A DNA stretch of 64,000 nucleotides from Clostridia bacterium (GTDB taxonomy: Bacteria; Bacillota; Clostridia; Christensenellales; CAG-1252): NCBI GenBank assembly GCA_017444385.1, contig JAFSWQ010000008.1, forward strand, positions 5,004 to 69,003. The letters are read 5' to 3'. Numbering within the stretch: position 1 is the stretch's first letter; each line of letters starts with the position of its first letter. Both the position numbers and the translations under genes were made by a program. Positions 3,767 through 63,421 of this stretch are shown piece after piece. The notes beneath the pieces were generated by a model, which did not search any database, was not told where the DNA came from, and saw only the letters and a program-made list of their open reading frames with translations.

Positions 3767-3979
3767 GCACGTATCGAATTGCGGAAACCCGAGCGAAGCG
3801 AGGCTCGAGCAAACGCATAACGTTTGCGAGAAAGAGGAATAGGCAAGCAATAACGAAACCACCGCAGATGGTGAGTAAAAGCGAAGCCTATGACGAGTCG
3901 AAGGATCCCTTAACGCGAAGCATCAAGTATTAATAAAAGTATATGCGGAAGAGATGTTTCGACTTCGCTCAACATGACG
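3767..3979 (+). repeat. repeat cluster: T1 - A
   Basis: T1 at 3767-3922, with a degenerate left end and the tail CCCTTAACGCGAAGCA. A unit at 3947-3979. Confidence 0.9.
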
Positions 3980-6637: not shown

Positions 6638-7234
6638 GTGAAGATAACCAGCGCGAGTTTTATAAAATCGGTGAGCGATACCGCTCTACCCGAATATAAC
6701 AAAGAGATCGCCGTCGTGGGTAGAAGTAACGTCGGCAAGAGTTCTTTTATTAATTTTCTCACCGATAACGGCAAGCTGGCGAGGACTTCTTCCACGCCCG
6801 GACGTACTCGCCTTATCAACTATTTCGACGTAAATAAAGGCGAGTTTACTCTGGTCGATCTTCCCGGTTACGGCTTCGCGAAGGTCTCGAACGACGAAAA
6901 AGAGAAGTGGAAAAAGATAATCGAAAACTACCTGCAAAACAGCAAAAACCTACTCCACGTCTTTATCATCACGGATATAAAAGTCGTCGATTCCCCGCTT
7001 GACTCGCAAATGGTTTATTACCTTAATACCTATAATATTCCATATACGGTCATCGCGAATAAAGCGGACAATATCCCCAAATCGCAAATCCCCAAAAACG
7101 TAAATAAGATCGCCGCCCATTTCGGGCTTGGAATGGGGAATATATACGTCGTTTCCTCGGTCAAAAAGACGGGGAAAGAGAAAGTCCTCGACCGTATCGA
7201 ACAAATACTTTACACGCCGAATAACTTCGAGTAA
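6638..7234 (+). CDS. engB: ribosome biogenesis GTPase YsxC/EngB
   Basis: GTG start with GAGGT upstream. G1 motif GRSNVGKSS, G3 motif DLPGYG. Follows lon, as in Bacillus and Clostridia. Confidence 0.9.
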   Translation: MKITSASFIKSVSDTALPEYNKEIAVVGRSNVGKSSFINFLTDNGKLARTSSTPGRTRLINYFDVNKGEFTLVDLPGYGFAKVSNDEKEKWKKIIENYLQNSKNLLHVFIITDIKVVDSPLDSQMVYYLNTYNIPYTVIANKADNIPKSQIPKNVNKIAAHFGLGMGNIYVVSSVKKTGKEKVLDRIEQILYTPNNFE

Positions 7235-7506
7235 GCGTTAAGGCTTGGATATTTTCGTCGAGCGATTAGATATTATTTAGGTGGATATTGATTGAGATAA
7301 TAATATTTGATATTAGGAAGATAATATTTATAAGGATAATATAATTAGTACAATTTAATAATAAATAGGCGCTGTGAAACGTCCTACGTAAAAGAATATT
7401 TCGGCTTTATTACGCCGCGCGAGATTATGGCAACTAAAAGTTCCTCTTGCGAGCGTGTCGAATTACTCTCTTATTAAGGTAAAACGCTTTCACAGCGCCT
7501 TTTGTC

Positions 7507-8216: not shown

Positions 8217-8778
8217 TTCCTTTACGAAAACCTTTTGGGTTTTCTCGATTGCTCACCTCGTTCGCGTAAAAATATCAGTACGTAATTCCGACCAACTTCG
8301 AGAAATTACAAATAATAGCACGTCATCTTTAACAGCAAAACCCGAGCGAAGCGAGGCTCGAGCAAACGCTTAACGTTTGCGAGAAAGAGGAATAGGCAAG
8401 CAACAACGAAACCATCGTAGATGGTGAGTAAAAGCGAAGCCTATGACGAGTCGAAGGATCCCCTTAAAAGAGGTAACTATCTTATAAAACTATCTTAAAT
8501 CGGAAGAGATGTTTCGACTACGCTACGCTTCGCTCAACATGACGAGTAAATTATATTAGTACCGTCATAGTGAGAAGGAATAACCCGAGCGAAGCGAGGC
8601 TCGAGCAAACGCAAAACGTTTGCGAGAAAGAGGAATAGGCAAGCAACAACGAAACCATCGTAGATGGTGAGTAAAAGCGAAGCCTATGACGAGTCGAGGG
8701 ATCCCCTAACGCGAAGCAGTGATAATCTTTCATATCGTTCAAATCCGAAGAGACGTTTCGACTACGCTCAACATGACG
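8217..8778 (+). repeat. repeat cluster: T2 fragment(-), degenerate S, then tandem [T1 - A][T1 - A]
   Basis: T2 fragment 8217-8266 (reverse orientation). Degenerate S 8278-8309. T1 8318-8466. A 8502-8544 (with a 9-nt internal duplication). T1 8559-8718. A 8746-8778. Confidence 0.9.
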
Positions 8779-17908: not shown

Positions 17909-19038
17909 AAGCGTTATCCGTCCCTATAATAAGCAAGAGAAAGGGGCTAACGCGACCCGATAAACTTTCTATAACTCTCGCGTTACTCGTTGCCGCCCTT
18001 TGCGCGTTTTCTCTATTCGTCCTATACAGCGCGAGTTTTTACGCTGCCGAAAAGAACTTCGGCGACGGGCTTTACTATCTTAAAAAACAAGCGTTGGCTA
18101 TGGGGTTAGGGGTAATTACGGCGGTGGTTTTGTCATTCATAAACGCCGAAAAACTCAAAAAAGCGGCTATCCCTTTGCTCGTGGTTTCCTTCGTCCTATT
18201 GGGAATAATCTTTATCCCCGCTTTGGGCGTGGAAAGTTACGGCGCGCGAAGATGGCTGAATTTGGGCTTTATCACCATGCAGCCTTCCGAGGTGAGTAAA
18301 TTCGGGCTGGTTTTCTTCTCGGCGTTCATTATAGATAAGTACAAGACGGACACTCTAAAAGGCGGGTTGCCCATATTGCTCGTAGGAATTGCGATGTGCG
18401 TTTTGTTGCTATTAGAACCCAATATGTCGGTAACCGTCCTCACCGCGACTTTGATGATGGCTATGCTTTTCGCAGGGGGCGTAAAGACGAGGAAATTCGC
18501 ATATATTTTACTACCCTTAATCGCCGGCGCGGTGCTTTTGATTTTGCTCGAACCGTATAGACTTCAAAGGCTTACCGCGTTTATCGATCCGTGGGCGTCA
18601 CCGAAAGGGGAAGGCTATCAACTCATACAGTCCTATTACGCGTTAGGCTCGGGCGGTTGGTTTGGTACGGGTTACTTGAAAGGGCGACAAAAGTATATGT
18701 TTTTACCCTTTGCCGAGTCGGATTTTATCTTTGCGATAGTGGGTGAAGAATTCGGGTTTGTAGGCGCGATATTATTGATAGCGGTTTATATGGCGATAGC
18801 TATTACGGGGTATAAGATAGCCGCGAGGGCGCAAACGCGGTTTCAAGCGGTCTTGGCTTACGGGATATCCTCGGTGATAGTATTGCAAACGCTTATAAAC
18901 GTCGCGGTGGTTTCGGGCAGTATTCCGCCTACCGGGATTCCACTGCCGTTTATGAGTTACGGCGGTAGCTCGCTTGTTTGCTTCCTCTCGTCGATAGGCA
19001 TCCTCGAAAGCGTCGCAAGGAACGGTAGAGCGTTTTGA
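17905..19038 (+). CDS. ftsW: SEDS-family peptidoglycan glycosyltransferase FtsW/SpoVE
   Basis: 10-TM-type protein with a FAESDFIFAIVGEEFGF motif. Follows murD. Confidence 0.9.
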   Translation: MKALSVPIISKRKGLTRPDKLSITLALLVAALCAFSLFVLYSASFYAAEKNFGDGLYYLKKQALAMGLGVITAVVLSFINAEKLKKAAIPLLVVSFVLLGIIFIPALGVESYGARRWLNLGFITMQPSEVSKFGLVFFSAFIIDKYKTDTLKGGLPILLVGIAMCVLLLLEPNMSVTVLTATLMMAMLFAGGVKTRKFAYILLPLIAGAVLLILLEPYRLQRLTAFIDPWASPKGEGYQLIQSYYALGSGGWFGTGYLKGRQKYMFLPFAESDFIFAIVGEEFGFVGAILLIAVYMAIAITGYKIAARAQTRFQAVLAYGISSVIVLQTLINVAVVSGSIPPTGIPLPFMSYGGSSLVCFLSSIGILESVARNGRAF

Positions 19039-19097
19039 TATGGGTGAAATTAAAAACAAAGAAAGCTTTATGTAGAAAAATATAAGTAGTCTAAATC

Positions 19098-19193
19098 GGT
19101 AGAGACGTTTCGACAGGCTCAACTCGTCACGACTTTCGCTTTTTATTCGTTGAGAAAAATTCTCAACTTCATTTTTGCTCGGTCGTTCCTCTT
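19098..19193 (-). repeat. T2 module, partial
   Basis: GGTAGAGACGTTTCGACAGGCTCAACTCGTCACGACTTTCGC...GTTGAGAAAAATTCTCAAC...GCTCGGTCGTTCCTCTT. Matches the first ~95 nt of the full T2 copy at 27323-27462. Confidence 0.85.
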
Positions 19194-19293
19194 GCGAAGT
19201 AAGTTATTATACGAGCTTCAGCGAGTAAGATAATTTGTAAAGTCAAGTGATCAATTTTAGCCATACTAGACCTTTCTATACTATTTTCTTTAT

Positions 19294-19647
19294 GAGCGAA
19301 GCGAATTCCGGAAGTTTGCACCCTTCCGCCATAGGCGGGAGCAAAGGGGGATGGACCGCTTCCGAAGCAGTCTCAAACTGCGACGAAGTGGTGGGGGTTT
19401 TAAGAGAGAGTATCACGTTATTAAGAATCGTAAAATACGAAAGCATTAGGATTTTTAGAGACTAATGTCTTGTACGGAATAAACGTTTTGATATTTTTTT
19501 TGGTAAATTCGGTAATACCGAGTGCTAATTCAAAACCCCCGACCTTCCGTCGAGCTAAAGCTCTTTGGGAACGTCCCCTCCCCCTTTGCCCGCTTGAATC
19601 CCAGATTCTTCACTAAAGGGTGCAAACTTCCGGACTCGCCGAAGCTC
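19294..19647 (+). repeat. L element copy 1 (~354 nt, long imperfect fold-back; possible structured RNA or MITE)
   Basis: About 90% identical to 26898-27249. Arms pair: CCGGAAGTTTGCACCC with GGGTGCAAACTTCCGG, GCAAAGGGGGA with TCCCCCTTTGC, GGGGGTTTT with AAAACCCCC. Local hairpins occur in each arm. Confidence 0.85.
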
Positions 19648-19703
19648 GTGAGATTAAAAAAGACAAAGAAAGTTTTTATGTAAAAAAATAATTAGTCTAA
19701 ATC

Positions 19704-19963
19704 GGTAGAGATGTTTCGACTACGCTCAACATGACGAAAAAATAAGAGTACGTCATCTTTAACAGCAAGCCCGAGCGAAGCGAGGCTCGAGCAAACGCTT
19801 AACGTTTGCGAGAAAGAGGAATAGGCAAGCAACAACGAAACCATTGTAGATGGTGAGTAAAAGCGAAGCCTATGACGAGTCGAGGGATCCCCTAACGCGA
19901 AGCAGCGGTAATCATTTAAGTATTTTTATCGGTAGTGACGTTTCGACTTCGCTCAATATGACG
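19704..19963 (+). repeat. repeat cluster: A - T1 - A
   Basis: A 19704-19736, T1 19748-19904, A 19931-19963. Confidence 0.9.
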
Positions 19964-20028
19964 ATAAAAATAACACTCTTAATAAAAAGTCCGTCATACT
20001 CTCGCCTTGACGAAAATAATATTCAATT

Positions 20029-21270
20029 ATGACGGAAGAATATTTTTTGATAAAGCAAAGCAGAATATGCGGGGAAGTCGTCCCTCAAGGAAGTAAAAAC
20101 GCGGCGTTACCGCTCATCGCCGCTTGCGTGGAATGTCGCGGGCGTTACGTTTTGAGAAACGTTCCCGACATCGAGGACGTCAAAACCCTTATAAAAATTT
20201 TTTCAAATTACGGCGTAAAATTTACCTTTCGTAATAACGAATTGTCGATAGATTCAAGGGAATTGCGCTCTTCGGTCGAGTCAAGCGAAGAAGAAGAGAA
20301 ACTTCGAGCCTCGTCCTACCTTATCGGCGCGATAATTCCCTCTAATAAGCGGCTCGTTCTGTCTCCGCCGGGCGGTTGCAAATTGGGTGATAGACCTCTC
20401 GATATCCACTTCGACGTTTGCCGTAGTTTAGGCGTTACGGTTAGAATAGAGGATAAACTGTATTTCGAGTGGGATCAAGAAGGCTCGCGTAAAATAAACC
20501 TACGATTCCCGTCGGTAGGGGCGACGATAAACGCTATTATGCTCGCCGCTTCCCTCGAAAAAGAAACCCTCATAGTAAACGCCGCGCCCGAGCCCGAAGT
20601 TGACGAGGTGATTTCCTTTTACCGTTTAACGGGCGTAAAGATCGAGAGAGAAGGGGAAAGCATTCTTATTTTCGGCAAAGAAAACAAAAAAGAGATAGTT
20701 TACGCCGTCCCTTTCGATAGGATTGTATGCGGCGATCTAATGCTTTTAGCGGCGGCAACGAAAGGGGAATTGCTCATAAAAGGGGTGGATTTTCAACAAG
20801 AGGCTGCTTTAATCGGTAAATTTTCTCTAACCCCTTGCCAAATAAGGTATTATTATGATAGAATATATATTCGGAATAGTGGGAGAGTCTGCGGTAACGT
20901 AATTACCGCCCCTTATCCGTATTTCCCTACCGATCTTCAAGCCCAATTCGCCGCCGCCTCGGTTGGCTCGGGCGGTAGTTGCCGAATATGCGAACACGTC
21001 TTCGGTTCAAGATTCGCCTATTTCGAAGAACTTGAAAAGATGGGCGCAAAGGGAAAAATAGACGGCAACGAATTGACTCTCGAGAGATCCGCTTTGACGG
21101 GTGCCACCGTGACCGCCAAAGATTTAAGAAGCGGTATGGCGTTAACTATCGCGGGGTTCGCCGCGCGTGGATATACGAAAGTTTACGGTCTTCGTTATTT
21201 GGACAGAGGGTACGAGAATTTAGTTCGAGTCCTCACTTCCATTAACGGGGATATAAAGAGGATAGAATGA
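20029..21270 (+). CDS. murA: UDP-N-acetylglucosamine 1-carboxyvinyltransferase
   Basis: 413 aa. Active-site loop PPGGCKLGDRPLDIH with the catalytic Cys. Confidence 0.85.
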   Translation: MTEEYFLIKQSRICGEVVPQGSKNAALPLIAACVECRGRYVLRNVPDIEDVKTLIKIFSNYGVKFTFRNNELSIDSRELRSSVESSEEEEKLRASSYLIGAIIPSNKRLVLSPPGGCKLGDRPLDIHFDVCRSLGVTVRIEDKLYFEWDQEGSRKINLRFPSVGATINAIMLAASLEKETLIVNAAPEPEVDEVISFYRLTGVKIEREGESILIFGKENKKEIVYAVPFDRIVCGDLMLLAAATKGELLIKGVDFQQEAALIGKFSLTPCQIRYYYDRIYIRNSGRVCGNVITAPYPYFPTDLQAQFAAASVGSGGSCRICEHVFGSRFAYFEELEKMGAKGKIDGNELTLERSALTGATVTAKDLRSGMALTIAGFAARGYTKVYGLRYLDRGYENLVRVLTSINGDIKRIE

Positions 21271-22100: not shown

Positions 22101-22300
22101 GGGATATTTCGACTTCGTTTCACTTCGCTCAATATGACGATATCTAAACAGTACGTCATACTAAACTAGGAGATCCGAGCGAAGCGAGTATCGAACAAAC
22201 GCAAAGCGGTTGTGAGAAAGAGGAATAGGCAAGCAAAAACGAAATCATTGTAAGATGATAAGTTATAGCGAAGCCTATGACGAGTCGAAGGATCCCCTAA
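22101..22300 (+). repeat. repeat cluster: A - T1
   Basis: A 22101-22139 (variant with an internal duplication and an ATAT/ATAT stem). T1 22151-22300 (diverged copy). Confidence 0.85.
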
Positions 22301-22393
22301 ATAATAATACCTAAAATTATAAAAATTTATAAACAAATTCCGAGCAAAATCTCAAGAAATGCTCTAATTATAATTTAAACTAATGAGGTTGTT

Positions 22394-24774: not shown

Positions 24775-24828
24775 AGTAAATTAACTGCGATTATTCGCAT
24801 TGATTTAATTTGGCTCAAAAATTTTACT

Positions 24829-25092
24829 CGTCATGTTGAGCTTGTCGAAACATCTCTTCCGATTGAGATAATCAAATAAGCAAACACTGCTTCGCGTTAG
24901 GGGATTCCTCGACGATGCTCGGAATGACGGTACTAATATAATTTACTCGTCATGTTGAGCTTGTCGAAACATCTCTTCCAATTTGGAACCTCATATAAGA
25001 GATTACGATTGGTTAGGGGATCCCTCGACGTTGCTCGGGATGACGTACTGATATTTTCTCGTCATGATGAGCGAAGTCGAAACATCTCTTCC
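24829..25092 (-). repeat. repeat cluster in reverse orientation: A - S - A - S - A
   Basis: A 24829-24860, S 24888-24933, A 24948-24979, S 25013-25048, A 25060-25092. All are reverse complements of the forms seen elsewhere. Confidence 0.9.
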
Positions 25093-25186
25093 GGTTGAGA
25101 TAATTAAACAAGCAAAAGGTTTTCGAGAAAGTCGACAAGAAAACGGTTGATAGATTAAATTCTTCCGTTTTCTTTTTTTATTCCCA

Positions 25187-26707: not shown

Positions 26708-26855
26708 CACGTCATTATAAATTGGGAAAACCTCGCGAAGCGACGCTCGAACAAACGCACGCGTTTGTGAGAAAGAGGAATAGGCAAGCAACCACGAAAC
26801 CATCGTTAGACGGTGAGTAAAAGCGAAGCCTATGACGAGTCGAAGTATCCCCTAA
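26708..26855 (+). repeat. T1 module
   Basis: GCACGTCATTATAAATTGGGAAAACCTCGCGAAGCGACGCTCGAACAAACGCACGCGTTTGTGAG...GTCGAAGTATCCCCTAA. A truncated A end lies at 26681-26697. Confidence 0.9.
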
Positions 26856-26897
26856 CAATGAGTATAAAAAATACGTTCTCTCGCCGTAGGCGAAAAT

Positions 26898-27249
26898 GAG
26901 CATAGCGAATTCGAGAAGTTTGCACCCTTCCGCCATAGGCGGGAGCAAAGGGGGATGGACCGCTTCCAAAGCAGTCTTAAACTGCGACGAAGTGGTGGGG
27001 GTTTTAAGAGAGAGTATCACGTTATGAAGAATTGTATAATACGAAAGCATTAGGATTTTTAGGGACGAACGTCTTGTACGGAATAAACGATTCGATATTA
27101 TTCGGAAAATCGGTAAAAACGAGTGCTAATTCAAAACCCCCGACCTTCCGTCGAGCCTTTGGCTCTTTGGGAACGTCCCCTCCCCCTTTGCCCGTTCGAA
27201 TCGCAGATACTTCACTAAAGGGTGCAAACTTTCGGAAGTCGCTACGCTC
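26898..27249 (+). repeat. L element copy 2 (~352 nt)
   Basis: Second copy of the element at 19294-19647, with the same long-range helices. Differences cluster in the apical AT-rich part and in hairpin loops. Confidence 0.85.
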
Positions 27250-27322: not shown

Positions 27323-27462
27323 GGAAGAGATATTTCGACAGGCTCAACTCGTCACGACTTTCGTTTTTATTCGTTGAGAAAAATCCTCAACTTCATTTTT
27401 GCTCGGTCGTTCCTCTTTCTCGAAAACCTTTTGGGTTTTCTCGATTGCTCACTTCGTTCGCG
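27323..27462 (-). repeat. T2 module, full length
   Basis: Its reverse complement aligns block-for-block with T1. The shared blocks are CGAGAAAGAGGAA, TGACGAG and GTCGAA. The three helices have different sequences but remain complementary. Confidence 0.85.
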
Positions 27463-27473
27463 TTTTTATAATA

Positions 27474-27863
27474 GCACGTCATCCTGAGCAACGTCGAAGG
27501 ATCCCCTAACGCGAAGCGGTGGTTGCTTATAAGAGTATACAAATCGTAAGAGATGTTTCGACTACGCTCAACATGACGAGTAAAACATTTTAGTACGTCA
27601 TAGTGAGAAGGAAATAACCTCGCGAAGCGAGGGTCGAGCAAACGCTTGCGTTTGTGAGAAAGAGGAATAGGCAAGCAACCACGAAACCATTGTTAGATGG
27701 TGAGTAAAAGCGAAGCCTATGACGAGTCGAGGAATCCCCTAACAAGTGGTAATACACTTATAAAGAACAATTCGGTTGAGATGTTTCGACTACGCTCAAC
27801 ATGACTATTAAAAAGAGATGTTTCGACTACGCTCAACGTGAAGATAAAAAGAGCCGTTTCGAC
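27474..27863 (+). repeat. repeat cluster: S - A - T1 - A - A - partial A
   Basis: S 27474-27517, A 27546-27578, T1 27593-27742, A 27774-27805, A 27813-27843, partial A 27851-27863. Confidence 0.9.
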
Positions 27864-27879
27864 TAATTTAACCGAACGC

Positions 27880-28653
27880 TTAACTCTCTAAATACGCTCT
27901 TAACTTTTTGACCGCGCTGTTTTCAAGGCGGGAAACCTGCGCTTGCGATACGTTGCAGCTTTTGCTAACTTCGCTTTGCGTTTTGCCTTCGTAGTAACGT
28001 AAATCTATTATTTGTCTTTCTTTTTCGTTTAAGGTAGATAGAGCCGCCTCTAAATCGATTCTATCAACCCAATTGCTTTCTTTTTCGGTTTTATCGGCTA
28101 TTTGATCCATAACGAGGACGTCCTCGCCGTCCGAAAAAGCGGGTTCGTAGAGGGATATTGGATCGGATATAGCGTCCAACGCTTCGCAAACGAGGGAAAC
28201 GGGTATGTCTACGTCGGCGGCTATCTCGGTTAGAGTCGGCTCTTTGAGCCCCAACTCGGAAAACTTGTTCCGTGATTGCATCACCTTATACGCGACGTCG
28301 CGCATCTTTCGCGATACCTTTACCGAAGTGTTTTCTCTTAAAAACCTGCGTATCTCGCCGATAATCATAGGTACGGCGTAAGTGGAAAACATAACCCCGT
28401 ATTTTAAGTTGAAATTGTTGTAGGCTTTCGTTAGCCCCAAACACCCCACTTGAAAAACGTCGTCCGCAAGAGAGGGCTGAAAGTCGAACCTGTGAAGAAT
28501 GGAAAGAACTAATCTTTGGTTGCAATACAAAAAGCGTTTTCTCGCTTCGTCGTCACCGTTTTTGGCTCTTGCGATGAGTTCCGATGATTCTTTATTCGAT
28601 AGTTTTGGGATTTTATCGGTATCAACGCCCGATATAAAAACTTTGTAATTCAT
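27880..28653 (-). CDS. sigG: RNA polymerase sporulation sigma factor SigG
   Basis: ISGVDTDKIPKLSN, FSTYAVPMIIGEIRRFLR and VSQAQVSRLE match forespore SigG from memory. SigF cannot be fully excluded. Confidence 0.8.
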   Translation of the reverse strand: MNYKVFISGVDTDKIPKLSNKESSELIARAKNGDDEARKRFLYCNQRLVLSILHRFDFQPSLADDVFQVGCLGLTKAYNNFNLKYGVMFSTYAVPMIIGEIRRFLRENTSVKVSRKMRDVAYKVMQSRNKFSELGLKEPTLTEIAADVDIPVSLVCEALDAISDPISLYEPAFSDGEDVLVMDQIADKTEKESNWVDRIDLEAALSTLNEKERQIIDLRYYEGKTQSEVSKSCNVSQAQVSRLENSAVKKLRAYLES

Positions 28654-28726: not shown

Positions 28727-29010
28727 GGAAGAGAGGTTTCGACTACAAACGCAGTATTTTTTCATTGAACCACGAATTGTCGTGAGCGGGTTATAGTACG
28801 TAATCCTAAATTGGAAAAACCTCGCGAAGCGAGGCTCGAGCAAACGCAAAACGTTTGAGAGAAAGAGGAATAGGCAAGCAACAACGAAACCATCGTTAGA
28901 TGGTGAGTAAAAGCGAAGCCTATGACGAGTCGAGGGATCCCCTAAAAAGGGGTAATTCAATTATTAAATCACTAATAGGATGAGATGTTTCGACTTCGCT
29001 CAACATGACG
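28727..29010 (+). repeat. repeat cluster: truncated A - T1 - A
   Basis: Truncated A 28727-28746, T1 28796-28945, A 28978-29010. Confidence 0.9.
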
Positions 29011-31118: not shown

Positions 31119-31796
31119 TTAAAGATCGGTTCCCGTCGTAATAAGGTGGTTTTTAAGTTTAAGAAGAGCCTTTTTCTCAATGCGGGAAACGTAAGAGCGC
31201 GAGATATTCATCTTAGTCGCGATTTCTCTTTGATGCCTTTTTTCCACGCCGAAAAGACCGTATCGCAAAACGATGACCGCGTATTCGCGTTTGGTGAGCG
31301 AAGCCTTCATCGCCTTCTTTAATTCGGTCGTCAAAACTTCGTTTTCAAGCGACTCGGAAACGCTGTAATTCTCGTCCGAAAGGGTGTCCGAAAGGGATAT
31401 CTCGTTGCCTTCTTTGTCCGAGCCTATCGTCATAAAAAGGGATACGTTCCTCGCGTTTTTCTTGTTTGCGCGAAGATACATTAGTATCTCGTTCACGATG
31501 CATTTAGCGGCGTAGGTGGAAAACCTAACGTTTTTATCCGCGTCGAAAGTGTTTACCGCTTTGATAAGTCCGATTGACCCCACGCTTATCAATTCGTCTT
31601 GGTCGGAAGAGGGGTAACGCTTCGCGATATGTACCACAAGCCGCATATTGTGCGCGACCAGTTCGTTTTGCGCTTCCTTGTCACCGCGTTTCATTCTCTC
31701 GAAAAGGCTTTTTTCGTCGCTTTTTTCAAGAGGGGTAAGGAAACCGTTCCCTTCGGCTAACGGAGAGAAAAAAGGTTTTAAGTCGATAATTGTCAT
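31119..31796 (-). CDS. sigK: RNA polymerase sporulation sigma factor SigK (uninterrupted, with pro-sequence)
   Basis: HNMRLVVHIAKRY, KCIVNEILMYLRA, DKEGNEISLSDTLSDEN and ISRSYVSRIEKKAL resemble B. subtilis SigK from memory. No obvious SD sequence upstream. Confidence 0.75.
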   Translation of the reverse strand: MTIIDLKPFFSPLAEGNGFLTPLEKSDEKSLFERMKRGDKEAQNELVAHNMRLVVHIAKRYPSSDQDELISVGSIGLIKAVNTFDADKNVRFSTYAAKCIVNEILMYLRANKKNARNVSLFMTIGSDKEGNEISLSDTLSDENYSVSESLENEVLTTELKKAMKASLTKREYAVIVLRYGLFGVEKRHQREIATKMNISRSYVSRIEKKALLKLKNHLITTGTDL

Positions 31797-31884: not shown

Positions 31885-32197
31885 GCAAGTCAACCAGGCG
31901 ATCGCACGCAAGTGAGGAAAGTCCGAGCACCACAGGACGAGAGCGCCGGCTAACTACCGGTGGAGGCGACTTCAAGGAAAGTGCAACAGAAATATACCGC
32001 GGAAACGCAAGGGTGGAAAGGCGAGGTAAGAGCTCACCGCTTGAAAGGTAACTTTCGAGGCAATGTAAACCCCGCTCGGTGCAAGTAAGGGAGGCTAAAG
32101 CTGTCCGCCACTCCCGAATACGCTAGAACCTATCGGTAACGATAGGTCAAGAAAGATGACCGCCAAATACAGAACTCGGCTTATAGATTGGTCTTGC
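31885..32197 (+). ncRNA. rnpB: RNase P RNA, bacterial type A
   Basis: P4 strands GAGGAAAGTCCGAGC (31913-) and ACAGAACTCGGCTTAT (32170-). Type A blocks AGTGCAACAGAAA, GGTAAGAGCTCACCGC and GTAAACCCCGCTCGGTGCAAG. 5' GCAAG pairs with 3' CTTGC (P1). A promoter and a terminator flank it. Confidence 0.92.
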
Positions 32198-32202
32198 AAA
32201 AA

Positions 32203-32377: not shown

Positions 32378-35300
32378 ATGATATACGCGATTATTGTGCT
32401 TTCAACGGCGACGGTGGTTTTCGGTATTTGCGCGGTTATATTCAAAAACGCCTATCCCGTAGTTTTCGAGAACTTTGAGCGGCTCGTCGAGGGGATAAAG
32501 ACGGTCGAGCGAGGGGGTAGGGGGCTAAATCTCTCTAAATACCGCCGAATCCTTAAAAACGCTCAAAAGTCGATTTCCGCAAAAGATCGTAAGGATACGT
32601 ATTCCTTTGAAAAATGGATAGTCGATAACTATTTCGTGGTTTACGAGGCGTTGAAACGGGTGAATTTACGCTCTCTTCCGCACGTTCAAGGCGTGCCGCG
32701 GGTGTATTTGATCGCCGAATTCTTCGTCGCAAACGAGATGGGCAAGGCGGAAAACTTCATATCCTTCGTTAAAGATTTGGAAAGGACGGTTAGCCTCGAT
32801 TTCAGCGAGATAGTCGCTCTGCCTACCGCGTTAAAAATAGCGGAAGCCGTAGCGGTCGTCACTGCCGCCGAATATTCTTTGCGATTCGATAAAGAAAAAC
32901 GCGAGCTTTCGGGAAAAGAGAGTTTGAACGATAAAACTCCTTCTTACGTTTCCTTTTACGCGGAAAAGTACGAAGTGGAAGATAGCTTTTTATCATTCGT
33001 AAGAGAGGCGAAAGAGTCCTTCGTTTCCTTGCAAATTTACTTGGAACGTAAAACGAGCGTAGCCGTCGAGAATATCAAAAACGTTTATAAAGTATCGGTT
33101 TTAAGGACGTATGAAACGCTTTGCTCTTCTAACTCTCAACTTAAAAACACGGATAATTACGATGATCTCTCTCGCCCCACGCAAATAGAGTATTTACGCA
33201 GGATAAGCGAGATATCGAACGCGCTGAACGTCCCCGAATCCGCCGTTTGCGAGTCGGCTATATTTTTATCGCGCAGCTTGAAAGAGGACGTGAGCCGAGT
33301 ATTGTTCGACAAGAAACTCTTGAAAAACTATATCGAAAAGGGCAAAATCAAACGCGAGAAAAACCGTAAGAAGCCCGTATATATCGCTCTCGTTTTCATT
33401 CTTGCGGGTGTTATCGGCTTGTCGCCTCTAACTCTCTCACGAACGCTACTCGATATAGTATTTTCCATCGTCCTATTTATATGTTCGATAAAGCCTATGG
33501 AACTACTTTTGAAACGGCTCTTTTCTCTTGCGAAAAAGCCGCCCGTGTTCGCTATGGGGTACAAGAAAGTACCCGAAAACGCCGAAACCGTCGTGGTTGT
33601 GCCTATCTACGTCAGCGGGGAAGAGGGTTTGAAATCGGGATACGAAAAGATACGCGCGCTATCGTTCAACACCTCGGACGAAAGGGTGCAATACTGTTTG
33701 CTCGTCGACCTGCCTAAAAGCCGTGAAGAGAAGACCACGCTCGACGAAACTCTATTAACTTACGCCAAAACCCTATTCGAGAAGGACGATAGGGTAATTG
33801 TCTACGTCCGCAAAAAGAGCGAGGAAGACGGCGTTTTCTTGGGAAAAGAGAGGAAAAGGGGCGCGCTACTTGACTTTTTCGAGAGCGAGATAAGCGGCAA
33901 TACGGACAAGTTTCTTTATTGCAGTAAGAAACTTACGGGCGCGAAATTCGCGGTGATTTTGGACGAGGATAACGAGATCTTACCCGATACGATATTGAAT
34001 TCAATTAACACCTTTTTGCACCCTTACAACGCGGATTACGATCTATTGAGTTACGGCGCGAAGATAAATAAATATTCCATCACGACCATATATTCGAAGA
34101 GGTACTCGGAAGACGGAAGCGTGGATTGCTACCCCTGTTACAACGACTTTTACGCGGACGTTTTCGGCGAGGCTGTGTTCTGCGGTAAGGGTATAATCAA
34201 GATATCTTCCTTCTATCGAAAGGTTTTGGACGCGTTCCCCGAAAAGCGTATTTTAAGCCACGATATAATAGAGGGCGCAACCGCGAAATGCGGTAGTTTA
34301 CGGCAAAGTATCTTCGAGGACGCCCCTCAAAACTTCAAAGCCGACGTCACGCGAACCTTTCGCTGGCAAAGAGGGGACGTTTTATTGCTACCTTATCTCT
34401 CTCGCCGCGTAATAGACGCGAATAACGAAAAAAGAAGCAACAATATAAGCGGAATTTATAAGCTTATAATTCTTGTAAACGGATTAGAGCCAATAAGAAA
34501 TACCCTACTGCTTGCGTTGGCGTTTTTAGCGTGTTTCGCAAAAGCCTATCACCTATTAGGCTTCCTCGCGCTATCCACCTCGCTGCCTTTTTTAATCGAC
34601 GGTTTGAGGTCGCTGAAATTCGGCAAGGTGAGGTTAAGATATATTTTACGCGATTTGGGTAGGCTATTTTCTCACGCTTTCGAACGCTTTTTCTTTCTGC
34701 CGTTTTATGCGGTAGAGGGGGCGAGAGTTTTCTTTTCCACGATATTCGGCTCGGCGTTTTCAAAGAAGTCATTGATAAATTGGACGCCTTATAAGAACAC
34801 GCAAAAGAAAAACGGACTACTCGCTTACGTGCGCCTTTTCGCGCCGAGCAAAGTGGTAATGTCTATATTGGGCGTATTGTCTTTCGACCCCTACTTTTTG
34901 GCGTTCGCCGCGGTGTACGTTTTGTACGCTTTTATAGTCTACAAAGGGGGTACGATAGGGATAAAACACGACGAAAGAGAGCAGACCACATTAAAAGAAG
35001 TCGGGAAAGCCACTTTCGACTTTTTCGCTAAAACCCTCGTCAACGACCTACCGCGTGACAATATTCAGATTTCGCCTAAAACCAAACAAACGTTTATGAC
35101 GAGCCCCACCGACGTAGGCTTTTATCTAATGTCTTTGGTATGCGGTGTAGAGCTTGGGTATATTTCAGCTAAAATCGCCGACGAAAGAATAGAAAAAACG
35201 CTAACTCGCCTCGATTCGCTCGAAAAGTATCGCGGTCACCTCTATAATTGGTACGACGTTGAAACCCTTAAACCCCTACCGCCCAAACGCATTTCTTCCG

Positions 35301-38300
35301 CCGATAGCGGGAATTTTACGGCGTGTATGACGGTGGTAAGAGAGTATTTTAAGCGGAAAGGGGACGAAAAACGCGCGCTAGGAGTGAAATCCTACCTCTC
35401 CCCCGATTATTCGTTTTTATTCGATAACGATAAACGTTTATTGAATATCGCATACTACGTCGACGAGAATAGGGCGGAAGGCGTTTACGATATTTTCGAG
35501 AGCGAAGCGCGCCTTGCGTACTACGTCGCAATTTCGTTAGGGATTCCGAGCGAGGCGTGGTTTAACCTCGGTAGAAGTTTTATAAAGGACTACGGAAACA
35601 CGCGTTTGAGTTGGGGCGGCTCGCTTTTCGAGTACCTTATGCCCTCGATTTTCCTCAAACCGCCATTTTATTCTATGCAATATAAGTCCGAGCGAAACGC
35701 TTTTTATATCCATAAAAAGAAAACGGGGCTTTGGGGCGCTTCGGAAAGTTGTTTCAATGCGTTCGACGCCGAAACTCGCTATAAATACGAACTTCACGGT
35801 AACGGAAAATTGTCGATGAAGTACGACCTTATTGAAACAGTTTATTCGCCGTATTCTGCGTGTCTTTGCCTGCCTTACTCAAGGGGCGAAGTGGGGGAAG
35901 TTTTAAGGGAATATATCTCTTTGGGCGGATTTACCGAACGAGGTTTAGTCGAGAGTTGGGACGGTAAAAAAATCGACGTTTATATGACTCACCATCAAGG
36001 AATGATACTCGCCGCTATTACGAATTACCTGTGCGATGACGCGGTGAGCGAACTCTTTTTCGCAGCCGACGAGATGAGGGCGTTGAGGCTAATTAACGCC
36101 GAGCCGTACGAAAGAGCGTCGGGTTATTTGAAGAATTACAAGCGTAAAGAATACGCCGAAAAATCCCTTCCCAAAGTGTACGGCGATAACCTTTCCCCGT
36201 ACGCAACTTTGCTTACCGACGGCGCGTTCTCTTCGTTTAACACCGCCGACGGGGAAAGCCGAATATCTCTAAATAACCTGCTTTTATCCCCCGTTTACGA
36301 TAACCCGAATAGGTTGAGCGGGCGTTCCCTCGTCTTTGAAAAAGGCGGTGTGAAGTACGACCCGTTATCAAGTTGTTCGGTGATTTTGGGCGGGGATTCC
36401 TTCGAGAGAATAGGCGAAGAAGCCAAAGAAAAAGTCAAACTTATACCCGAAACGAGAGGGGAAATAAGACGTATAAGGATAAAGGGGAAGTCGGACGAGC
36501 GAATAGACCTTTCTTATTACTTCGACGTTTGCTTGCAAACCCCCGACGAAACCCATTCCCATCGTGGGTTTTACGACCTTTTCGTGACGAGCAAAGTAAG
36601 CGAGAATTATGCGGTTTATAGGCGGAAAAACCTCGATAACGTCGCGGTCATAGTAAAGGTTATTGGGCTTGACGATCTCGCGATAAATACGAATAAGCAA
36701 AACGTATTAGAGCGCAATAATACCTTTTTAGAAAGTCGGCTAACCGTTTCTAACGACAAATACCCCTCGTCGGGGGACGTCGTTTTCCCGTGTTTCGCGT
36801 GTAAGGGAGGCGTGGATATAAAGGAAAACGAAGAGAAAGACGTTTATATTTTGACTGTCTTTGCCGAAACTATCGACGAGTGCGAGCGAATAGCCGAGAG
36901 GTACGACGAAGAACGCTTAAAGTATTCGTTCGATCTGTTCGACGTGGATAAAAGCAATATAATTAAGGAAACCATAGCCGAAAACTTCTCGAAAGAGGGC
37001 GCGGAATTATTATATAAAATATTCAAAACGCCGTTTAGCGAGGACTACTTGATAGACGATAAATTCGACGGAAAATACAGAATACTTTATTCGCGTAAGA
37101 AGTCTTCTTCGACTATAGAAGAAGCGTTGACTGCGGTCGCCTCGTTGAAATATCTATCTTTCCCCGCCGTATTGCACACTGTCGAACCCATTATAAAAGG
37201 ATTGCCTGTCGAGATCTCTAACGAGATAAGCGGATCGTTTTATTATTCTTTCGGCGAAGAGGTGGAAAGGCGGGTTAAAATCCCCGTACGCAAACTACCA
37301 AAACAGCGCGGTAAACGCGAAGGGTTGTTTAGCGGCGAGGGGTACGTACGAGAGGGCGCTTACGAAGTGGAATCCAAGGGCGAAAACACGCTACGCCCCT
37401 ATTCCAACGTGATCTGCGATAAGAGCGTAGGTGCGATCGTCACCGAAAACGGCGGCGGGTTTTCCTTCGCGGATAACTCAAGAGGAAGGAAGTTTACCGA
37501 GTGGTATAACGACGTATTTCTCGACACGCCTTCCGAGGACGTTTTGATTTATATAAACGGTCGTTTTTATCGCTTGAATTCTTCCTCGTCGGTTTGTACT
37601 CACTACGCCGAAAAGACCGAATTCGTTGCGACTATCGAGGGAATAAGGTTCGCGCTTTCGATCTATTGCGAAAACGGAAGGATAGTAAAATGCGTAAAAG
37701 CGTTGGGCAAAAACGCTCGTTTTTGCGTTATATTCGGCTACCGTTTTTCTCTTGATTGGAAGGAATCCCGCGCAGTGTATTGCAAGGAAAAGGATTTGGG
37801 GCGAATGGTTTTATTCAATAAAGAAAGTAAAATGCAAGCGGTTTTGACTCTCACCGACGGCGTGCCTTTCGCCGGGGAAAGTAACCTTTTGAAAGCCTTA
37901 AAAGGCGAGCCTTTCGGGTTTAGCGGGGGATATTTCGGGCTATACGTTTTCGGCTTGTCTTGCGAGAATAAAATATCGAGTTACGTTTGCGGTTTGTACA
38001 AAAAGGAATTCAAAAGCGGTAAAAAGAAAACGAACGAAACCTATCTGAAAACCAACGACGCATACCTTGATTTGCTGTTCAACGATTGGCTTTATAAGCA
38101 GTTTTACGATTGTCGCTTTCTCTCTCGCGCGTCATTCTATCAATGCGGCGGCGGTTACGGGTTTCGCGATCAGTTACAAGACTCTCTCGCCCTTTTATAT
38201 TCGAGCGAGGAAACCGTCCTAAATCATATCCTCGACTGTTGTTCTCATCAGTACGTCGAGGGGGACGTAATGCACTGGTGGCACCCGCCGCGCACGGGGG

Positions 38301-39490
38301 TTAGGTCGCTAAACGCCGACGATAGATTTTTCCTTTGTTACGTCACCTCTAAATATATCGACAAAACGGGGGACGCGGGAATCCTCAACCGCAAAACCCC
38401 GTTTATAACGAGCGAACCGCTAAAAGAGGGCGAGATATCCCGCTACGAAATACCCACCCTAAAAAGAAGTTCGGAAAGCGTCAGAGAACACCTCAAACGC
38501 GCTCTTCTTTCGGGGCTTGACTTCGGCGAACACGACCTACTCAAAGTCCACGGCGGCGACTGGAACGACGGACTTGATAGGATAGGCGTTATGGGTAGAG
38601 GGGAAAGCGTATGGTTATCCGAATTCGCCTATCTCACCGTCGTAAAGTGCCTTGATTATTTCGACGGGGAAACCAAAAACCTCCTTCTTAACGCTTTAAG
38701 CCGCTTAAAAAAGGGGATAAACAAGGCGTTTTTCGGGGATAGGTTCATAGCCTATTACGACGACGAGGGCAATCCCGTGGGGCATAAGGACGGCGAAGAA
38801 TGTTCGTTATACCTTCTAACGCAGGCGTTCGCGCCTCTTTCTTCGGCGGTGGAAGAGGAAGTTTGCTTTGCGGCGATAAATACGGCGAAGAAACTCTACG
38901 ACGCGGAAAAACGCATATTGAAATTGTTTTATCCGCCTTTCAAAGAGAGTAGTAAATACGGATATATCGGCGATTATCCCTCGGGCGTCAGGGAAAACGG
39001 CGGGCAGTACACGCACGCCGCGGTATGGTACGCGCGCGCTCTTTTCGATTTGGGGTTAAACGACGAAGGTTACGAGATAATATCCTCGATAAATCCCCTT
39101 AAACGCTGTTCGGACGAGAGGGAAACCGAACGCTACAAAGGAGAGCCTTACGTTTTACCGGCGGACGTTTATTCGACGGGCGAATGCGGTTGGACTTGGT
39201 ACACGGGTAGCGCGGCTTGGTACTACGTCACGGTCGTTGAGAGTATGCTAGGCGTTACTTTCGACCACGGTAAAATCAAGTTCAGACCTCGACTTCCGTC
39301 ATCTATGGACGAAGCTTTTCTTCGCTTGAAACTCAAAGATACCGTGCATTTAATTACGATAAAAAAATCGATAGTAAATAAGCTCACCGTGAACGGCGTA
39401 GAGTATAAAAAAGAGTATTTTCAGCCTGAAAAACGAGAGGGCGAGGTCAATATAGTGGTGGAATATAAAGAAAAAGAAAAGAATATTTGA
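32378..39490 (+). CDS. giant multidomain glucan synthase/phosphorylase-like protein (GT84-type cyclic beta-1,2-glucan synthase N-terminal/middle part plus a GH94-type phosphorylase C-terminus)
   Basis: Single 2370-aa ORF with several TM helices (aa 1-25, ~340-380, ~700-860). GT-A-like ILDEDNE and FRWQRGD motifs. C-terminal HGGDWNDGLD and ENGGQYTHAAVWY motifs, recalled from GH94 cellobiose/chitobiose phosphorylases. Confidence 0.7.
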   Translation: MIYAIIVLSTATVVFGICAVIFKNAYPVVFENFERLVEGIKTVERGGRGLNLSKYRRILKNAQKSISAKDRKDTYSFEKWIVDNYFVVYEALKRVNLRSLPHVQGVPRVYLIAEFFVANEMGKAENFISFVKDLERTVSLDFSEIVALPTALKIAEAVAVVTAAEYSLRFDKEKRELSGKESLNDKTPSYVSFYAEKYEVEDSFLSFVREAKESFVSLQIYLERKTSVAVENIKNVYKVSVLRTYETLCSSNSQLKNTDNYDDLSRPTQIEYLRRISEISNALNVPESAVCESAIFLSRSLKEDVSRVLFDKKLLKNYIEKGKIKREKNRKKPVYIALVFILAGVIGLSPLTLSRTLLDIVFSIVLFICSIKPMELLLKRLFSLAKKPPVFAMGYKKVPENAETVVVVPIYVSGEEGLKSGYEKIRALSFNTSDERVQYCLLVDLPKSREEKTTLDETLLTYAKTLFEKDDRVIVYVRKKSEEDGVFLGKERKRGALLDFFESEISGNTDKFLYCSKKLTGAKFAVILDEDNEILPDTILNSINTFLHPYNADYDLLSYGAKINKYSITTIYSKRYSEDGSVDCYPCYNDFYADVFGEAVFCGKGIIKISSFYRKVLDAFPEKRILSHDIIEGATAKCGSLRQSIFEDAPQNFKADVTRTFRWQRGDVLLLPYLSRRVIDANNEKRSNNISGIYKLIILVNGLEPIRNTLLLALAFLACFAKAYHLLGFLALSTSLPFLIDGLRSLKFGKVRLRYILRDLGRLFSHAFERFFFLPFYAVEGARVFFSTIFGSAFSKKSLINWTPYKNTQKKNGLLAYVRLFAPSKVVMSILGVLSFDPYFLAFAAVYVLYAFIVYKGGTIGIKHDEREQTTLKEVGKATFDFFAKTLVNDLPRDNIQISPKTKQTFMTSPTDVGFYLMSLVCGVELGYISAKIADERIEKTLTRLDSLEKYRGHLYNWYDVETLKPLPPKRISSADSGNFTACMTVVREYFKRKGDEKRALGVKSYLSPDYSFLFDNDKRLLNIAYYVDENRAEGVYDIFESEARLAYYVAISLGIPSEAWFNLGRSFIKDYGNTRLSWGGSLFEYLMPSIFLKPPFYSMQYKSERNAFYIHKKKTGLWGASESCFNAFDAETRYKYELHGNGKLSMKYDLIETVYSPYSACLCLPYSRGEVGEVLREYISLGGFTERGLVESWDGKKIDVYMTHHQGMILAAITNYLCDDAVSELFFAADEMRALRLINAEPYERASGYLKNYKRKEYAEKSLPKVYGDNLSPYATLLTDGAFSSFNTADGESRISLNNLLLSPVYDNPNRLSGRSLVFEKGGVKYDPLSSCSVILGGDSFERIGEEAKEKVKLIPETRGEIRRIRIKGKSDERIDLSYYFDVCLQTPDETHSHRGFYDLFVTSKVSENYAVYRRKNLDNVAVIVKVIGLDDLAINTNKQNVLERNNTFLESRLTVSNDKYPSSGDVVFPCFACKGGVDIKENEEKDVYILTVFAETIDECERIAERYDEERLKYSFDLFDVDKSNIIKETIAENFSKEGAELLYKIFKTPFSEDYLIDDKFDGKYRILYSRKKSSSTIEEALTAVASLKYLSFPAVLHTVEPIIKGLPVEISNEISGSFYYSFGEEVERRVKIPVRKLPKQRGKREGLFSGEGYVREGAYEVESKGENTLRPYSNVICDKSVGAIVTENGGGFSFADNSRGRKFTEWYNDVFLDTPSEDVLIYINGRFYRLNSSSSVCTHYAEKTEFVATIEGIRFALSIYCENGRIVKCVKALGKNARFCVIFGYRFSLDWKESRAVYCKEKDLGRMVLFNKESKMQAVLTLTDGVPFAGESNLLKALKGEPFGFSGGYFGLYVFGLSCENKISSYVCGLYKKEFKSGKKKTNETYLKTNDAYLDLLFNDWLYKQFYDCRFLSRASFYQCGGGYGFRDQLQDSLALLYSSEETVLNHILDCCSHQYVEGDVMHWWHPPRTGVRSLNADDRFFLCYVTSKYIDKTGDAGILNRKTPFITSEPLKEGEISRYEIPTLKRSSESVREHLKRALLSGLDFGEHDLLKVHGGDWNDGLDRIGVMGRGESVWLSEFAYLTVVKCLDYFDGETKNLLLNALSRLKKGINKAFFGDRFIAYYDDEGNPVGHKDGEECSLYLLTQAFAPLSSAVEEEVCFAAINTAKKLYDAEKRILKLFYPPFKESSKYGYIGDYPSGVRENGGQYTHAAVWYARALFDLGLNDEGYEIISSINPLKRCSDERETERYKGEPYVLPADVYSTGECGWTWYTGSAAWYYVTVVESMLGVTFDHGKIKFRPRLPSSMDEAFLRLKLKDTVHLITIKKSIVNKLTVNGVEYKKEYFQPEKREGEVNIVVEYKEKEKNI

Positions 39491-45022: not shown

Positions 45023-45047
45023 AGTCCCTATATTAGGGGCTTTTTTT
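45023..45047 (+). terminator. intrinsic terminator after pyrH
   Basis: AGTCCCTA-TAT-TAGGGGCT stem (one U-G pair) followed by a T7 run. Confidence 0.7.
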
Positions 45048-45053
45048 ATAGAG

Positions 45054-45240
45054 AATAACGGCGTATTTAAAACGAATCACACCTTATTTAAAACGAATCA
45101 CGCCGTATTTAAAAGAATAACTGCGTATTTAAAACGAATCACGACTTGTTTAATAGATTCACAACTTGTTTGAAAAGTATCACGACATATTTATAAAGAA
45201 TCACGCCGTATTTAAAAAATCACGTCGTATTTATAAAAAA
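45054..45240 (+). repeat. nine tandem direct repeats of ~21 bp (iteron-like array)
   Basis: Units start at 45054, 45075, 45096, 45116, 45137, 45157, 45178, 45199 and 45218. Consensus AATCACGNCGTATTTAAAACG, containing the ACGnCGT mini-palindrome. No spacers. Confidence 0.9.
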
Positions 45241-62989: not shown

Positions 62990-63363
62990 GTACGTCATCC
63001 TGAGCCTGTCGAAGGATCCCCTAACGCGAAGCAACGTTTACAAGGAAGAGATGTTTCGACTACTCTCAACATGACGAAAATAGGTTTATAGTACGTCATC
63101 CCGAGCATCGTCGAGGGATCCCCTATCAAGAGGTAACTATTACTTTCTATGCTTTATTCGGAAGAGATGTTTCGACTACGCTCAACATGACGAATAAATA
63201 GAAGAAAGTCATACTTAACAACAAAAATCCGAGCGAAGCGAGGCTCGAGTAAACGCACAGTGTTTGCGAGAAAGAGGAATAGACAAGCAAAAACTAAATC
63301 ATCGTGAGATGATAAGTAAAAGCGAAGTCTATGACGAGTCGAGGGATCCCCTAACGCGAAGCA
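62990..63363 (+). repeat. repeat cluster: S - A - S - A - T1
   Basis: S 62990-63033, A 63044-63076, S 63091-63125, A 63170-63202, T1 63218-63363 (copy carrying compensatory stem changes). Confidence 0.9.
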
Positions 63364-63421
63364 ACGAACAACTATTTCAAACGGTATATCTTAATTATAA
63401 ACGACCAAAATAGAGGTAATT

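Follow-up and report, generated by a model that had tools for sequence, protein, structure and literature searches.

A duplicated fold-back element of a gut Clostridia bacterium is probably a gene-less member of a dispersed DNA repeat family related to DUF559 cassettes

The described systems closest to the element reported here are bacterial miniature inverted-repeat transposable elements (MITEs) and similar repeats, such as Correia, RUP, Nezha and the bcr1-type repeats of the Bacillus cereus group; the REPIN/RAYT, BIME and boxC repeats; and the large structured RNAs OLE, GOLLD, ROOL and HEARO/omega-RNA. On the protein side they are the Vsr-like nucleases (EDxHD, for example I-Bth0305I), an established homing-endonuclease family (PMC2677866, PMC3239194). 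Here we analyse a 64-kb stretch of a bacterial chromosome (the window; Clostridia bacterium, contig JAFSWQ010000008.1, ~45% GC, genes mostly on the + strand) that holds two copies of a fold-back element, L, at 19294-19647 (copy A) and 26898-27249 (copy B). An earlier note, made from the letters alone, had seen in L a possible large structured RNA. We put at roughly 0.6 the probability that L instead belongs, as a copy lacking the gene, to a family of fold-back repeats dispersed at the DNA level, either a MITE-like derivative or a decayed copy of a DUF559 cassette; most likely it is not a stand-alone structured RNA gene.

The two copies, 352-354 nt long, are 90.7% identical over 344 nt, in agreement with the ~90% first noticed. 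Within L, the left arm aligns end to end with the reverse complement of the right arm over ~115-125 nt, indicating that the arms are inverted homologues of one unit; the local hairpins previously called arm-specific are present, but they occupy equivalent positions in both arms. Word depths of contigs from run X2, which possibly include related strains and give approximate copy numbers, were ~8x for single-copy flanks, ~20x for the AT-rich centre (in exactly two variants), 40-100x for the left-arm type and 200-300x for the right-arm type. Arm-type sequence accordingly has ~6 to 35 times the single-copy abundance, against ~2 genome equivalents for the centre, which belongs only to copies A and B. 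Public runs containing window sequence are ruminant gut metagenomes, and goat-gut runs contain L-type reads, the centre included, at ~95-97% identity.

Diverged relatives of L were detected by profile search (nhmmer) only. The exact two-helix pattern (AAGTTTGCACCC..GCAAAGGGGGA) had no match in GTDB genomes, JGI metagenomes or IMG/VR; the spurious open reading frames (ORFs) spanning the arms, used as protein-database queries, returned themselves or nothing; searching ~3 Mb of fetched loci by blastn with the arms as queries gave no match; and synteny led through FtsA to no relative and through FtsZ to 80 loci, all at <=52% identity, in none of which we found L or the neighbouring repeat modules D1, D2 and D3. 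With the D3 module GTTTCGACTWCGCTCAACATGAC as bait, 237 loci were fetched among the matches listed, and a search for L relatives in these gave weak, repeated profile matches only in contigs of the JGI metagenome Ga0256405, the single source of the related family. A unit hidden Markov model (HMM), built in three rounds, recovered 39 units across nine Ga0256405 loci (E down to 1e-32); it also matched all four arms of the window copies, at E 1e-12 to 1e-18.

The dominant arrangement, a + unit, a centre and a - unit with inner ends facing, is seen in 14 pairs, 12 of them in Ga0256405, where the centres measure 66-79 nt (7 pairs), 163-164 nt (2), 277 nt (1) and 466/534 nt (2); the centres of the window copies are 117-120 nt when measured between HMM-defined units. 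Units are also found back-to-back, apparently solo or partial, and both orientations occur. In Ga0256405 the surroundings are ordinary, densely coding DNA, with a single fold-back to an intergenic gap. Of the MITE traits, L shows short non-coding length, inverted ends and many dispersed copies. Two other identities were considered and rejected: a CRISPR repeat for the 33-nt core at 19316-19348, since its alternative flanks are identical across different samples, and the end of an insertion sequence, since no consistent internal sequence lies past the inner arm boundary. That core, GTTTGCACCCTTCCGCC(A/T)TAGGCGGGAGCAAAG, recurs in other contigs with different, sample-conserved flanks (..GCGACCGTCTCA before, AGAGGGGACACGCCCAAAGGGCGACCGTAG after), which points to a possible further related module.

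Two long-centre members of the family, L235:720-1423 and L235:7991-8772, carry a 126-amino-acid ORF between their arms, against 12 gene-less pairs among the 14. This ORF matches Pfam DUF559 (PF04480; E 8.8e-22), which is Vsr/restriction-endonuclease-like; its nearest Protein Data Bank entry is 3HRL, an 'endonuclease-like protein' (E 1e-14), and its sequence reads ..LDFY..IELDGGQH.., with a D..E-x-D motif in ..LDFYAPSIKLSIELDGGQH.. A candidate promoter of the gene's own can be read by eye in the centre. Identity between the two cassettes is ~97% over a stretch that starts ~40 nt before the ATG, takes in the gene and the entire downstream arm and stops at the outer end of that arm, beyond which the flanks are unrelated; their upstream arms have the conserved blocks in common but differ in their variants of hairpins H1, H2 and H3. 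Being near-identical, these two members count as one event. The closest DUF559 relatives in GTDB, L321 (60% identity) and L373 (62%), are both flanked by L-type units: the L321 gene is surrounded by minimal units, and in L373 a sense unit lies directly upstream of the gene.

The association of DUF559 with inverted repeats is not confined to this family. When the up- and downstream flanks of 71 DUF559 loci were compared with each other and with flanks mismatched across loci, 39/71 own pairs, from many phyla, contained inverted repeats scoring 40 bits or more, as did 4/71 mismatched controls. The arms of these cassettes are taxon-specific inverted repeats built of G/C hairpins followed by a G-run; commonly one hairpin is the same in both arms and a second differs between them yet remains self-complementary, and where both partners of a local pair had changed, complementarity was retained in 25/35 cases, compared with 44% when columns were paired at random. 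The Escherichia coli DUF559 gene ycjD was considered as a bracketed example and discarded, since it is not bracketed. In the 3' flank of ycjD in E. coli K-12 (NC_000913.3, L401; 3217-3241 and 3396-3420) there are G-rich hairpin repeats, ACCCTCTCCCCAGAGGGGCGAGGGG, in the style of DUF559-cassette arms; these resemble enterobacterial boxC repeats. We found no description of bracketing repeats or mobility of DUF559 in the limited literature searched, and the DUF559 fold-back cassette family is apparently undescribed.

The ~115-nt unit consists of conserved blocks (GTTTGCACCCTT, GCAAAGGGGG, AAAG, CGAC and GGGGGTTTT) interrupted by the three variable hairpins. From outer to inner end it reads tip GAGCGAAGCG.., GTT(T/G)GCACCCTT, H1, (A/G)G(G/C)AAAGGGGG, the 5' strand of H2 (8 nt), C-AAAG, H3, CGAC, the 3' strand of H2 and GGGGGTTTT, with H2 enclosing H3. 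The parts of the two window copies are as follows.

Copy A, 19294-19401, + strand (sense, outer to inner): left unit; unit HMM match 19294-19406, E 2e-17
Copy A, 19296-19302: GCGAAGC mini-hairpin motif of the left outer tip GAGCGAAGCGA
Copy A, 19312-19325: left block a, AAGTTTGCACCCTT
Copy A, 19326-19338: left H1, CCGCC-ATA-GGCGG
Copy A, 19341-19351: left block b, GCAAAGGGGGA
Copy A, 19355-19362 and 19385-19392: left H2, 5' strand ACCGCTTC and 3' strand GAAGTGGT
Copy A, 19364-19367: left GAAG
Copy A, 19368-19380: left H3, CAGT-CTCAA-ACTG
Copy A, 19381-19384: left CGAC
Copy A, 19393-19401: left inner block, GGGGGTTTT
Copy A, 19402-19531: AT-rich centre, no conserved ORF
Copy A, 19532-19647, sense on the - strand: right unit; unit HMM match 19649-19527 (-), E 8e-13
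Copy A, 19532-19540: right AAAACCCCC (+ strand reading)
Copy A, 19541-19548 with 19568-19575: right H2, GACCTTCC with GGAACGTC
Copy A, 19549-19552: right GTCG
Copy A, 19553-19562: right H3, AGC-TAAA-GCT
Copy A, 19563-19567: right CTTTG
Copy A, 19579-19589: right TCCCCCTTTGC
Copy A, 19596-19608: right H1, GAATC-CCA-GATTC
Copy A, 19616-19634: right AAGGGTGCAAACTTCCGGA
Copy A, 19644-19647: right outer tip, ..GCTC
Copy B, 26898-27005, + strand: left unit; unit HMM match 26896-27010, E 4e-18
Copy B, 26898-26901: left GAGC
Copy B, 26916-26927: left AAGTTTGCACCC
Copy B, 26930-26942: left H1
Copy B, 26945-26955: left GCAAAGGGGGA
Copy B, 26959-26966 with 26989-26996: left H2
Copy B, 26997-27005: left GGGGGTTTT
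Copy B, 27006-27132: AT-rich centre, its first 93 nt 91% identical to copy A
Copy B, 27133-27249, - strand: right unit; unit HMM match 27249-27128 (-), E 3e-14
Copy B, 27133-27141: right AAAACCCCC
Copy B, right unit: H3 AGCC-TTT-GGCT, stem retained, sequence different from copy A
Copy B, 27181-27191: right TCCCCCTTTGC
Copy B, right unit: H1 GAATC-GCA-GATAC, in which a private A at 27209 disrupts one pair
Copy B, 27220-27231: right GGGTGCAAACTT
Copy B, 27246-27249: right GCTC

At position 27209, in the right H1 of copy B, all other contigs examined that reach this site carry T. The local hairpins that the earlier note had drawn (CCGCC-ATA-GGCGG, ACCGCTTC/GAAGTGGT around GCAGT-CTCAA-ACTGC, and GAGC-TAAA-GCTC) are all there, as is its AT-rich apical region, here ~120-130 nt. 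By nhmmer, the right half of the copy A centre (TGTACGG..CGTTTTGAT..TTTTTTTGG) aligns weakly to metagenome fold-backs with ~163-nt centres (L283 5002-5383). No reading frame is conserved between copies A and B, the frames being broken by indels. In the public metagenome assembly L001, a spurious 111-amino-acid 'gene' at 6970-7305 (window 26715-27050, - strand) runs over the copy B left arm together with a D1/D2 module; L and its relatives are better masked as repeats than called genes.

All three long-range helices described for L exist: TCCGGAAGTTTGCACCCTT/AAGGGTGCAAACTTCCGGA, the longest, is a perfect 19 bp in copy A (19307-19325 with 19616-19634), followed inward by GCAAAGGGGGA/TCCCCCTTTGC (19341-19351 with 19579-19589) and GGGGGTTTT/AAAACCCCC (19393-19401 with 19532-19540). 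The counterpart of the first in copy B is weaker, with 84% pairing over 32 nt, G.G and A.C mismatches, one G.T and a damaged outer part. The motif GGGTGCAAACTT occurs four times against 0.12 expected. L has a minimum free energy of -154.7 kcal/mol (z = -9.6 against shuffled sequence), and its opposite strand one of -149.0 (z = -9.8). Between copies A and B the long-range helices have double changes in 0/104 pairs. These helices are the invariant blocks of the dispersed family's units facing each other; they do not covary because they are built from blocks common to every unit, and they pair only because two units lie inverted.

Covariation is found, by contrast, in the local hairpins. H1, H2 and H3 each exist in at least six unrelated sequence versions, all self-complementary; those of H2 include ATTTTGCA/TGCAAAAT, TCTGCGCA/TGCGGAGA, ATTGCCAC/GTGGGAAT and ATTTTATC/GATAAAAT, and in the window ACCGCTTC/GAAGTGGT on the left and GACGTTCC/GGAAGGTC on the right. 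Across 22 distinct homologous units, pairing was maintained through double changes in 15/21 pairs according to RNAalifold, so the branch hairpins of the multi-helix fold-back design proposed for L are conserved. For H2, the register was set by visual inspection and RNAalifold agreed with it; pairing there is 100%, and 7/7 pairs have double changes. In a shuffle test of the named structure, 95.0% of cells were paired against 69.7% in shuffles, with 0/500 shuffles reaching it, and the covariation score was 0.686 against 0.212 in shuffles and 0.06-0.15 with slid partners. Independent covariation events are few because only ~6 variant classes exist.

An element usually combines two different arm variants. 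Arm identity is 0.65 within an element and 0.73 across elements, and the same H2 variant was found in both arms of 0/11 fold-backs; for the nine metagenome pairs, the chance of this outcome is ~0.06 from the observed variant frequencies. Since the arms are heterotypic and the blocks invariant, the sequence between the blocks folds locally, as the earlier note drew it. The G-T pair that it required in ACCGCTTC/GAAGTGGT is present at H2 position 4 of the window left arm, but it does not speak for RNA: the same position is usually G.G in homologous helices (three metagenome variants and the window right arm), and T-A in two others. The covariation of the local hairpins is equally compatible with DNA hairpins. 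Many hairpin loops are C-GAA-G, and the heptamer GCGAAGC, which forms the outer tip of L, occurs 45 times in the window against 15 +/- 3.5 expected (3x), 34 times on the + strand and mostly within repeat modules. As DNA, GCGNAGC is documented to form a mini-hairpin of extraordinary stability, known from single-stranded DNA origins and a phage promoter hairpin (PMC13037366).

The mechanism we propose is that of a selfish cassette whose full-length form encodes DUF559 between the arms. The arms would serve it as cis-acting DNA sites, and recognition would probably be of hairpins, either extruded or single-stranded; L would be a gene-less, non-autonomous derivative or a decayed copy, persisting in intergenic gaps of the dcw (division and cell wall)/sporulation cluster and transcribed either passively or from its own AT-rich centre. 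Having two different arms may also spare the element the instability to which long perfect palindromes are prone. The action of DUF559 on the arms is inferred from position alone, and the manner in which copies would spread is likewise a proposal.

Several observations weigh against derivation from a DUF559 cassette. DUF559 is not, to our knowledge, a transposase, and the 64-kb window contains no DUF559 homologue, nor any other nuclease or transposase among its annotated ORFs. We found only two gene-bearing members with full L-type arms, L321 and L373 being independent but weaker support. We found no target-site duplication at either window copy and no consistent one in nine metagenome fold-backs, whose boundaries are uncertain because the family ends run into further hairpin modules. 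Neither an empty site nor a precise-excision joint was found in six runs of low coverage, of which X12 holds both junctions of copy B; apparent skips in run contigs join other repeat modules. Finally, the metatranscriptome X7 contains a 263-nt contig of copy B type (26988-27236, centre and right arm) at depth 8.4, unstranded and from one run, where ftsA/ftsZ have depths of 2-15 and murD, ftsW, murA, ftsQ, spoIIGA and sigE have 0. The presence of L in RNA thus does not depend on the neighbouring genes, which are silent. Its RNA level, at or above that of ftsZ beside neighbours at 0, and the covarying hairpins are both compatible with an RNA-level role. The modules D10/D9 beside copy B (27440-27553) have X7 depths of 95 and 40, by far the region's highest.

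The alternative that survives best reverses the order of events: the fold-backs would be the primary repeat, spread or maintained in some other way, and DUF559 a free-standing homing endonuclease that cuts their gene-less centres and is copied in by repair with the arms as homology, making L an unoccupied target. The excess of gene-less over gene-bearing fold-backs fits this idea, the nuclease gene being present in two and absent from 12 with the same arm family, as does the near-identity of the L235 copies over gene and downstream arm next to differing upstream-arm variants, which is what a conversion tract would leave. It also accords with the bracketing of DUF559 genes of different phyla by taxon-specific inverted repeats, and with the standing of Vsr-like nucleases as homing endonucleases. 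We nevertheless think it unlikely: it leaves the multiplication of the gene-less fold-backs unexplained, deletion with inter-copy recombination gives the same pattern, no cleavage site is known, and the published EDxHD family is not DUF559 and is not described as having bracketing repeats.

An RNA-level function is less probable still, and we regard it as distinctly unlikely. The unit, or the fold-back as a whole, would act as a transcript: an inward-facing terminator or insulator, an mRNA-stabilising element, or a partner RNA of DUF559 in the manner of HEARO/omega-RNA and IscB. Such a role would account for the covariation of H1-H3 and the X7 depths, and for the hairpin and GGGGGTTTT that close every unit when it is read from the outside inward, a feature flagged terminator-like in both copies; other repeat families of the window, moreover, are strongly orientation-biased with transcription. 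However, the units of a fold-back lie on opposite strands, so that one transcript would contain one sense and one antisense unit, and both strands fold alike. Nor is there any asymmetry between G.U and A.C: among arm-to-arm transition mismatches of the 39 bracketed cassettes, gene-oriented, sense G.U pairs number 54 and A.C 56 (p = 0.92), and within every L-family element the two classes are likewise about even. The G.G at H2 position 4, the long helices that never vary and the frequent C-GAA-G or GCGAAGC loops, a stable DNA mini-hairpin motif, point the same way. Rfam at its gathering threshold has a sole match in the window, the class A RNase P RNA at 31886-32200, and none for L, bearing out the impression that L belongs to no known RNA family; a permissive scan of 19000-20100 (E up to 10) gave nothing credible, and 13 related loci gave 0 matches. 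The RNA evidence itself consists of unstranded contigs from one run, with DNA carry-over possible.

The claim that L is a large structured RNA rather than a derivative of a repeat or mobile element is not supported in view of the invariant long helices, the heterotypic arms, the lack of strand bias and the DUF559-bearing relatives, and the argument that a multi-helix architecture marks an RNA and not a MITE started from too narrow a premise, that MITEs carry only terminal inverted repeats. A local segmental duplication or chance palindrome in the dcw/sporulation region, with no family behind it, is highly improbable: only two full copies have this centre and D14/D15 modules accompany both, but chance and simple duplication are contradicted by arm depths of 40-300x against 8x, the goat-gut reads, the 39-unit family and z ~-9.6.

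The gap that holds copy A is flanked by ftsW and a murA-type gene, and that of copy B by sigE and a convergent sigma-factor gene, which places both copies inside a dcw/sporulation cluster of a spore-former. The window FtsZ is <=~52% identical to that of any GTDB representative, the nearest being uncultured gut Clostridia, Christensenellales or Caccovivens-like. The ~1-kb intergenic gaps of the window are crowded with other dispersed repeat modules. D1/D2 modules (~145 nt, all on the + strand, with the same GAGCGAAGCGA start as L) lie at 1495-1637, 3788-3934, 8337-8730, 19770-19916, 22170-22312, 26725-26876, 27612-27763, 28815-28965 and 63224-63366. The D15-D14 pair (19098-19193; 27323-27417) is a diverged reverse-complement copy, so that L lies between inverted D2-type modules at both loci, with opposite polarity.

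The D3 module, GAGATGTTTCGACTWCGCTCAACATGACG, has 16 copies on the + strand and three on the - strand (19702-19745 and 18 others, for example 1456, 3945, 6499, 27544 and 63158), the three minus-strand copies lying at 24814-25112. Its 23-nt core occurs exactly across many phyla, among the matches listed in Clostridia, Bacteroidota, Dehalococcoidia, Verrucomicrobiota, Saccharibacteria, Treponemataceae and others, and in the Ga0256405 family D3 directly adjoins one fold-back end type. In the ENA contig L003 (1022 nt), compared with window 19052-19995, the opening sequence is the 3' end of L with the spacer after it (19631-19714), joined to sequence from 19098 onward; the junction could reflect a tandem or circular 606-nt unit, at whose borders stand 63-nt direct repeats (19052-19114 and 19658-19720), but it may be an artefact because the contig's other end is Illumina adaptor.

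Elsewhere in the window, sigma-70-family genes lie at 27880-28653 (-) and 31119-31796 (-), downstream of spoIIGA-sigE; the former is convergent with sigE, whereas the usual sigE-sigG order is co-directional. Directly downstream of the RNase P RNA gene, a 2370-amino-acid ORF (32378-39490) combines a GH94 catalytic domain (cellobiose/chitobiose phosphorylase-type) with supersandwich domains and a glucoamylase-like domain. Between a pyrH-like amino-acid-kinase gene and frr, a tandem array at 45045-45238 repeats the 21-nt unit TTTAAAAAGAATCACGACGTA 9.4 times with 75% matches.

DUF559 is a very common bacterial domain without an assigned function, and more than half of the genes sampled here are bracketed. 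If it acts on the arms, a way of spreading within genomes would be defined that is new, and many of the spurious small ORFs and broken assemblies among gut metagenome-assembled genomes would have an explanation. It would also open a way into the study of a domain that even E. coli K-12 possesses. A broader proposal, which we advance tentatively and consider doubtful as it stands, is that DUF559 cassettes are a widespread kind of selfish element, in which a ~120-amino-acid Vsr-fold nuclease works on hairpin-rich inverted arms, as extruded or single-stranded DNA with GCGAAGC-type mini-hairpins and the conserved H2 mismatch, in order to copy itself, and leaves many gene-less fold-backs, L among them, behind. 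If true, it would supply a function for a domain whose range extends from E. coli (ycjD) to Clostridia of the gut, and would account for one class of intergenic repeats.

Set beside known systems, L behaves most like a MITE or a REPIN-type fold-back joined to a small nuclease gene. The DUF559 cassette resembles the EDxHD homing endonucleases, which are free-standing or associated with introns or inteins, in being a small Vsr-fold selfish insert with hairpins near the gene (PMC2677866, PMC3239194); that family differs in not being DUF559 and in targeting protein-coding genes, introns and inteins, and neither long bracketing inverted repeats nor gene-less derivatives have been described for it. 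Large structured RNAs (OLE, GOLLD, ROOL, HEARO/omega-RNA) share with L a length of ~350 nt, several helices, local covariation, presence in RNA and, in the case of HEARO, an association with a nuclease gene; L differs in having no Rfam match, two unit copies on opposite strands, invariant long helices, no strand bias and a multi-copy mosaic setting.

REPIN/RAYT, BIME and boxC repeats are, like L, inverted doublets of a hairpin unit arranged in intergenic module mosaics, with a single-copy or few-copy gene flanked by the repeats. L units are three to five times longer than REPs, have three hairpins and G-runs and require no GTAG-type REP signature, and the flanked gene is DUF559 where RAYT is a Y1 (HUH) gene. 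MITEs differ from L in their short terminal inverted repeats, the L arms being ~115 nt, hairpin-rich with covarying stems and usually of different variants; the gene of the long L relatives is DUF559/Vsr-like and not a DDE, HUH or recombinase transposase, and no target-site duplication was found. Like L, however, MITEs are small, non-coding, dispersed and intergenic, have inverted ends, fold back as single-stranded DNA or RNA and are often transcribed, and in both there are longer, gene-carrying relatives that share the ends.

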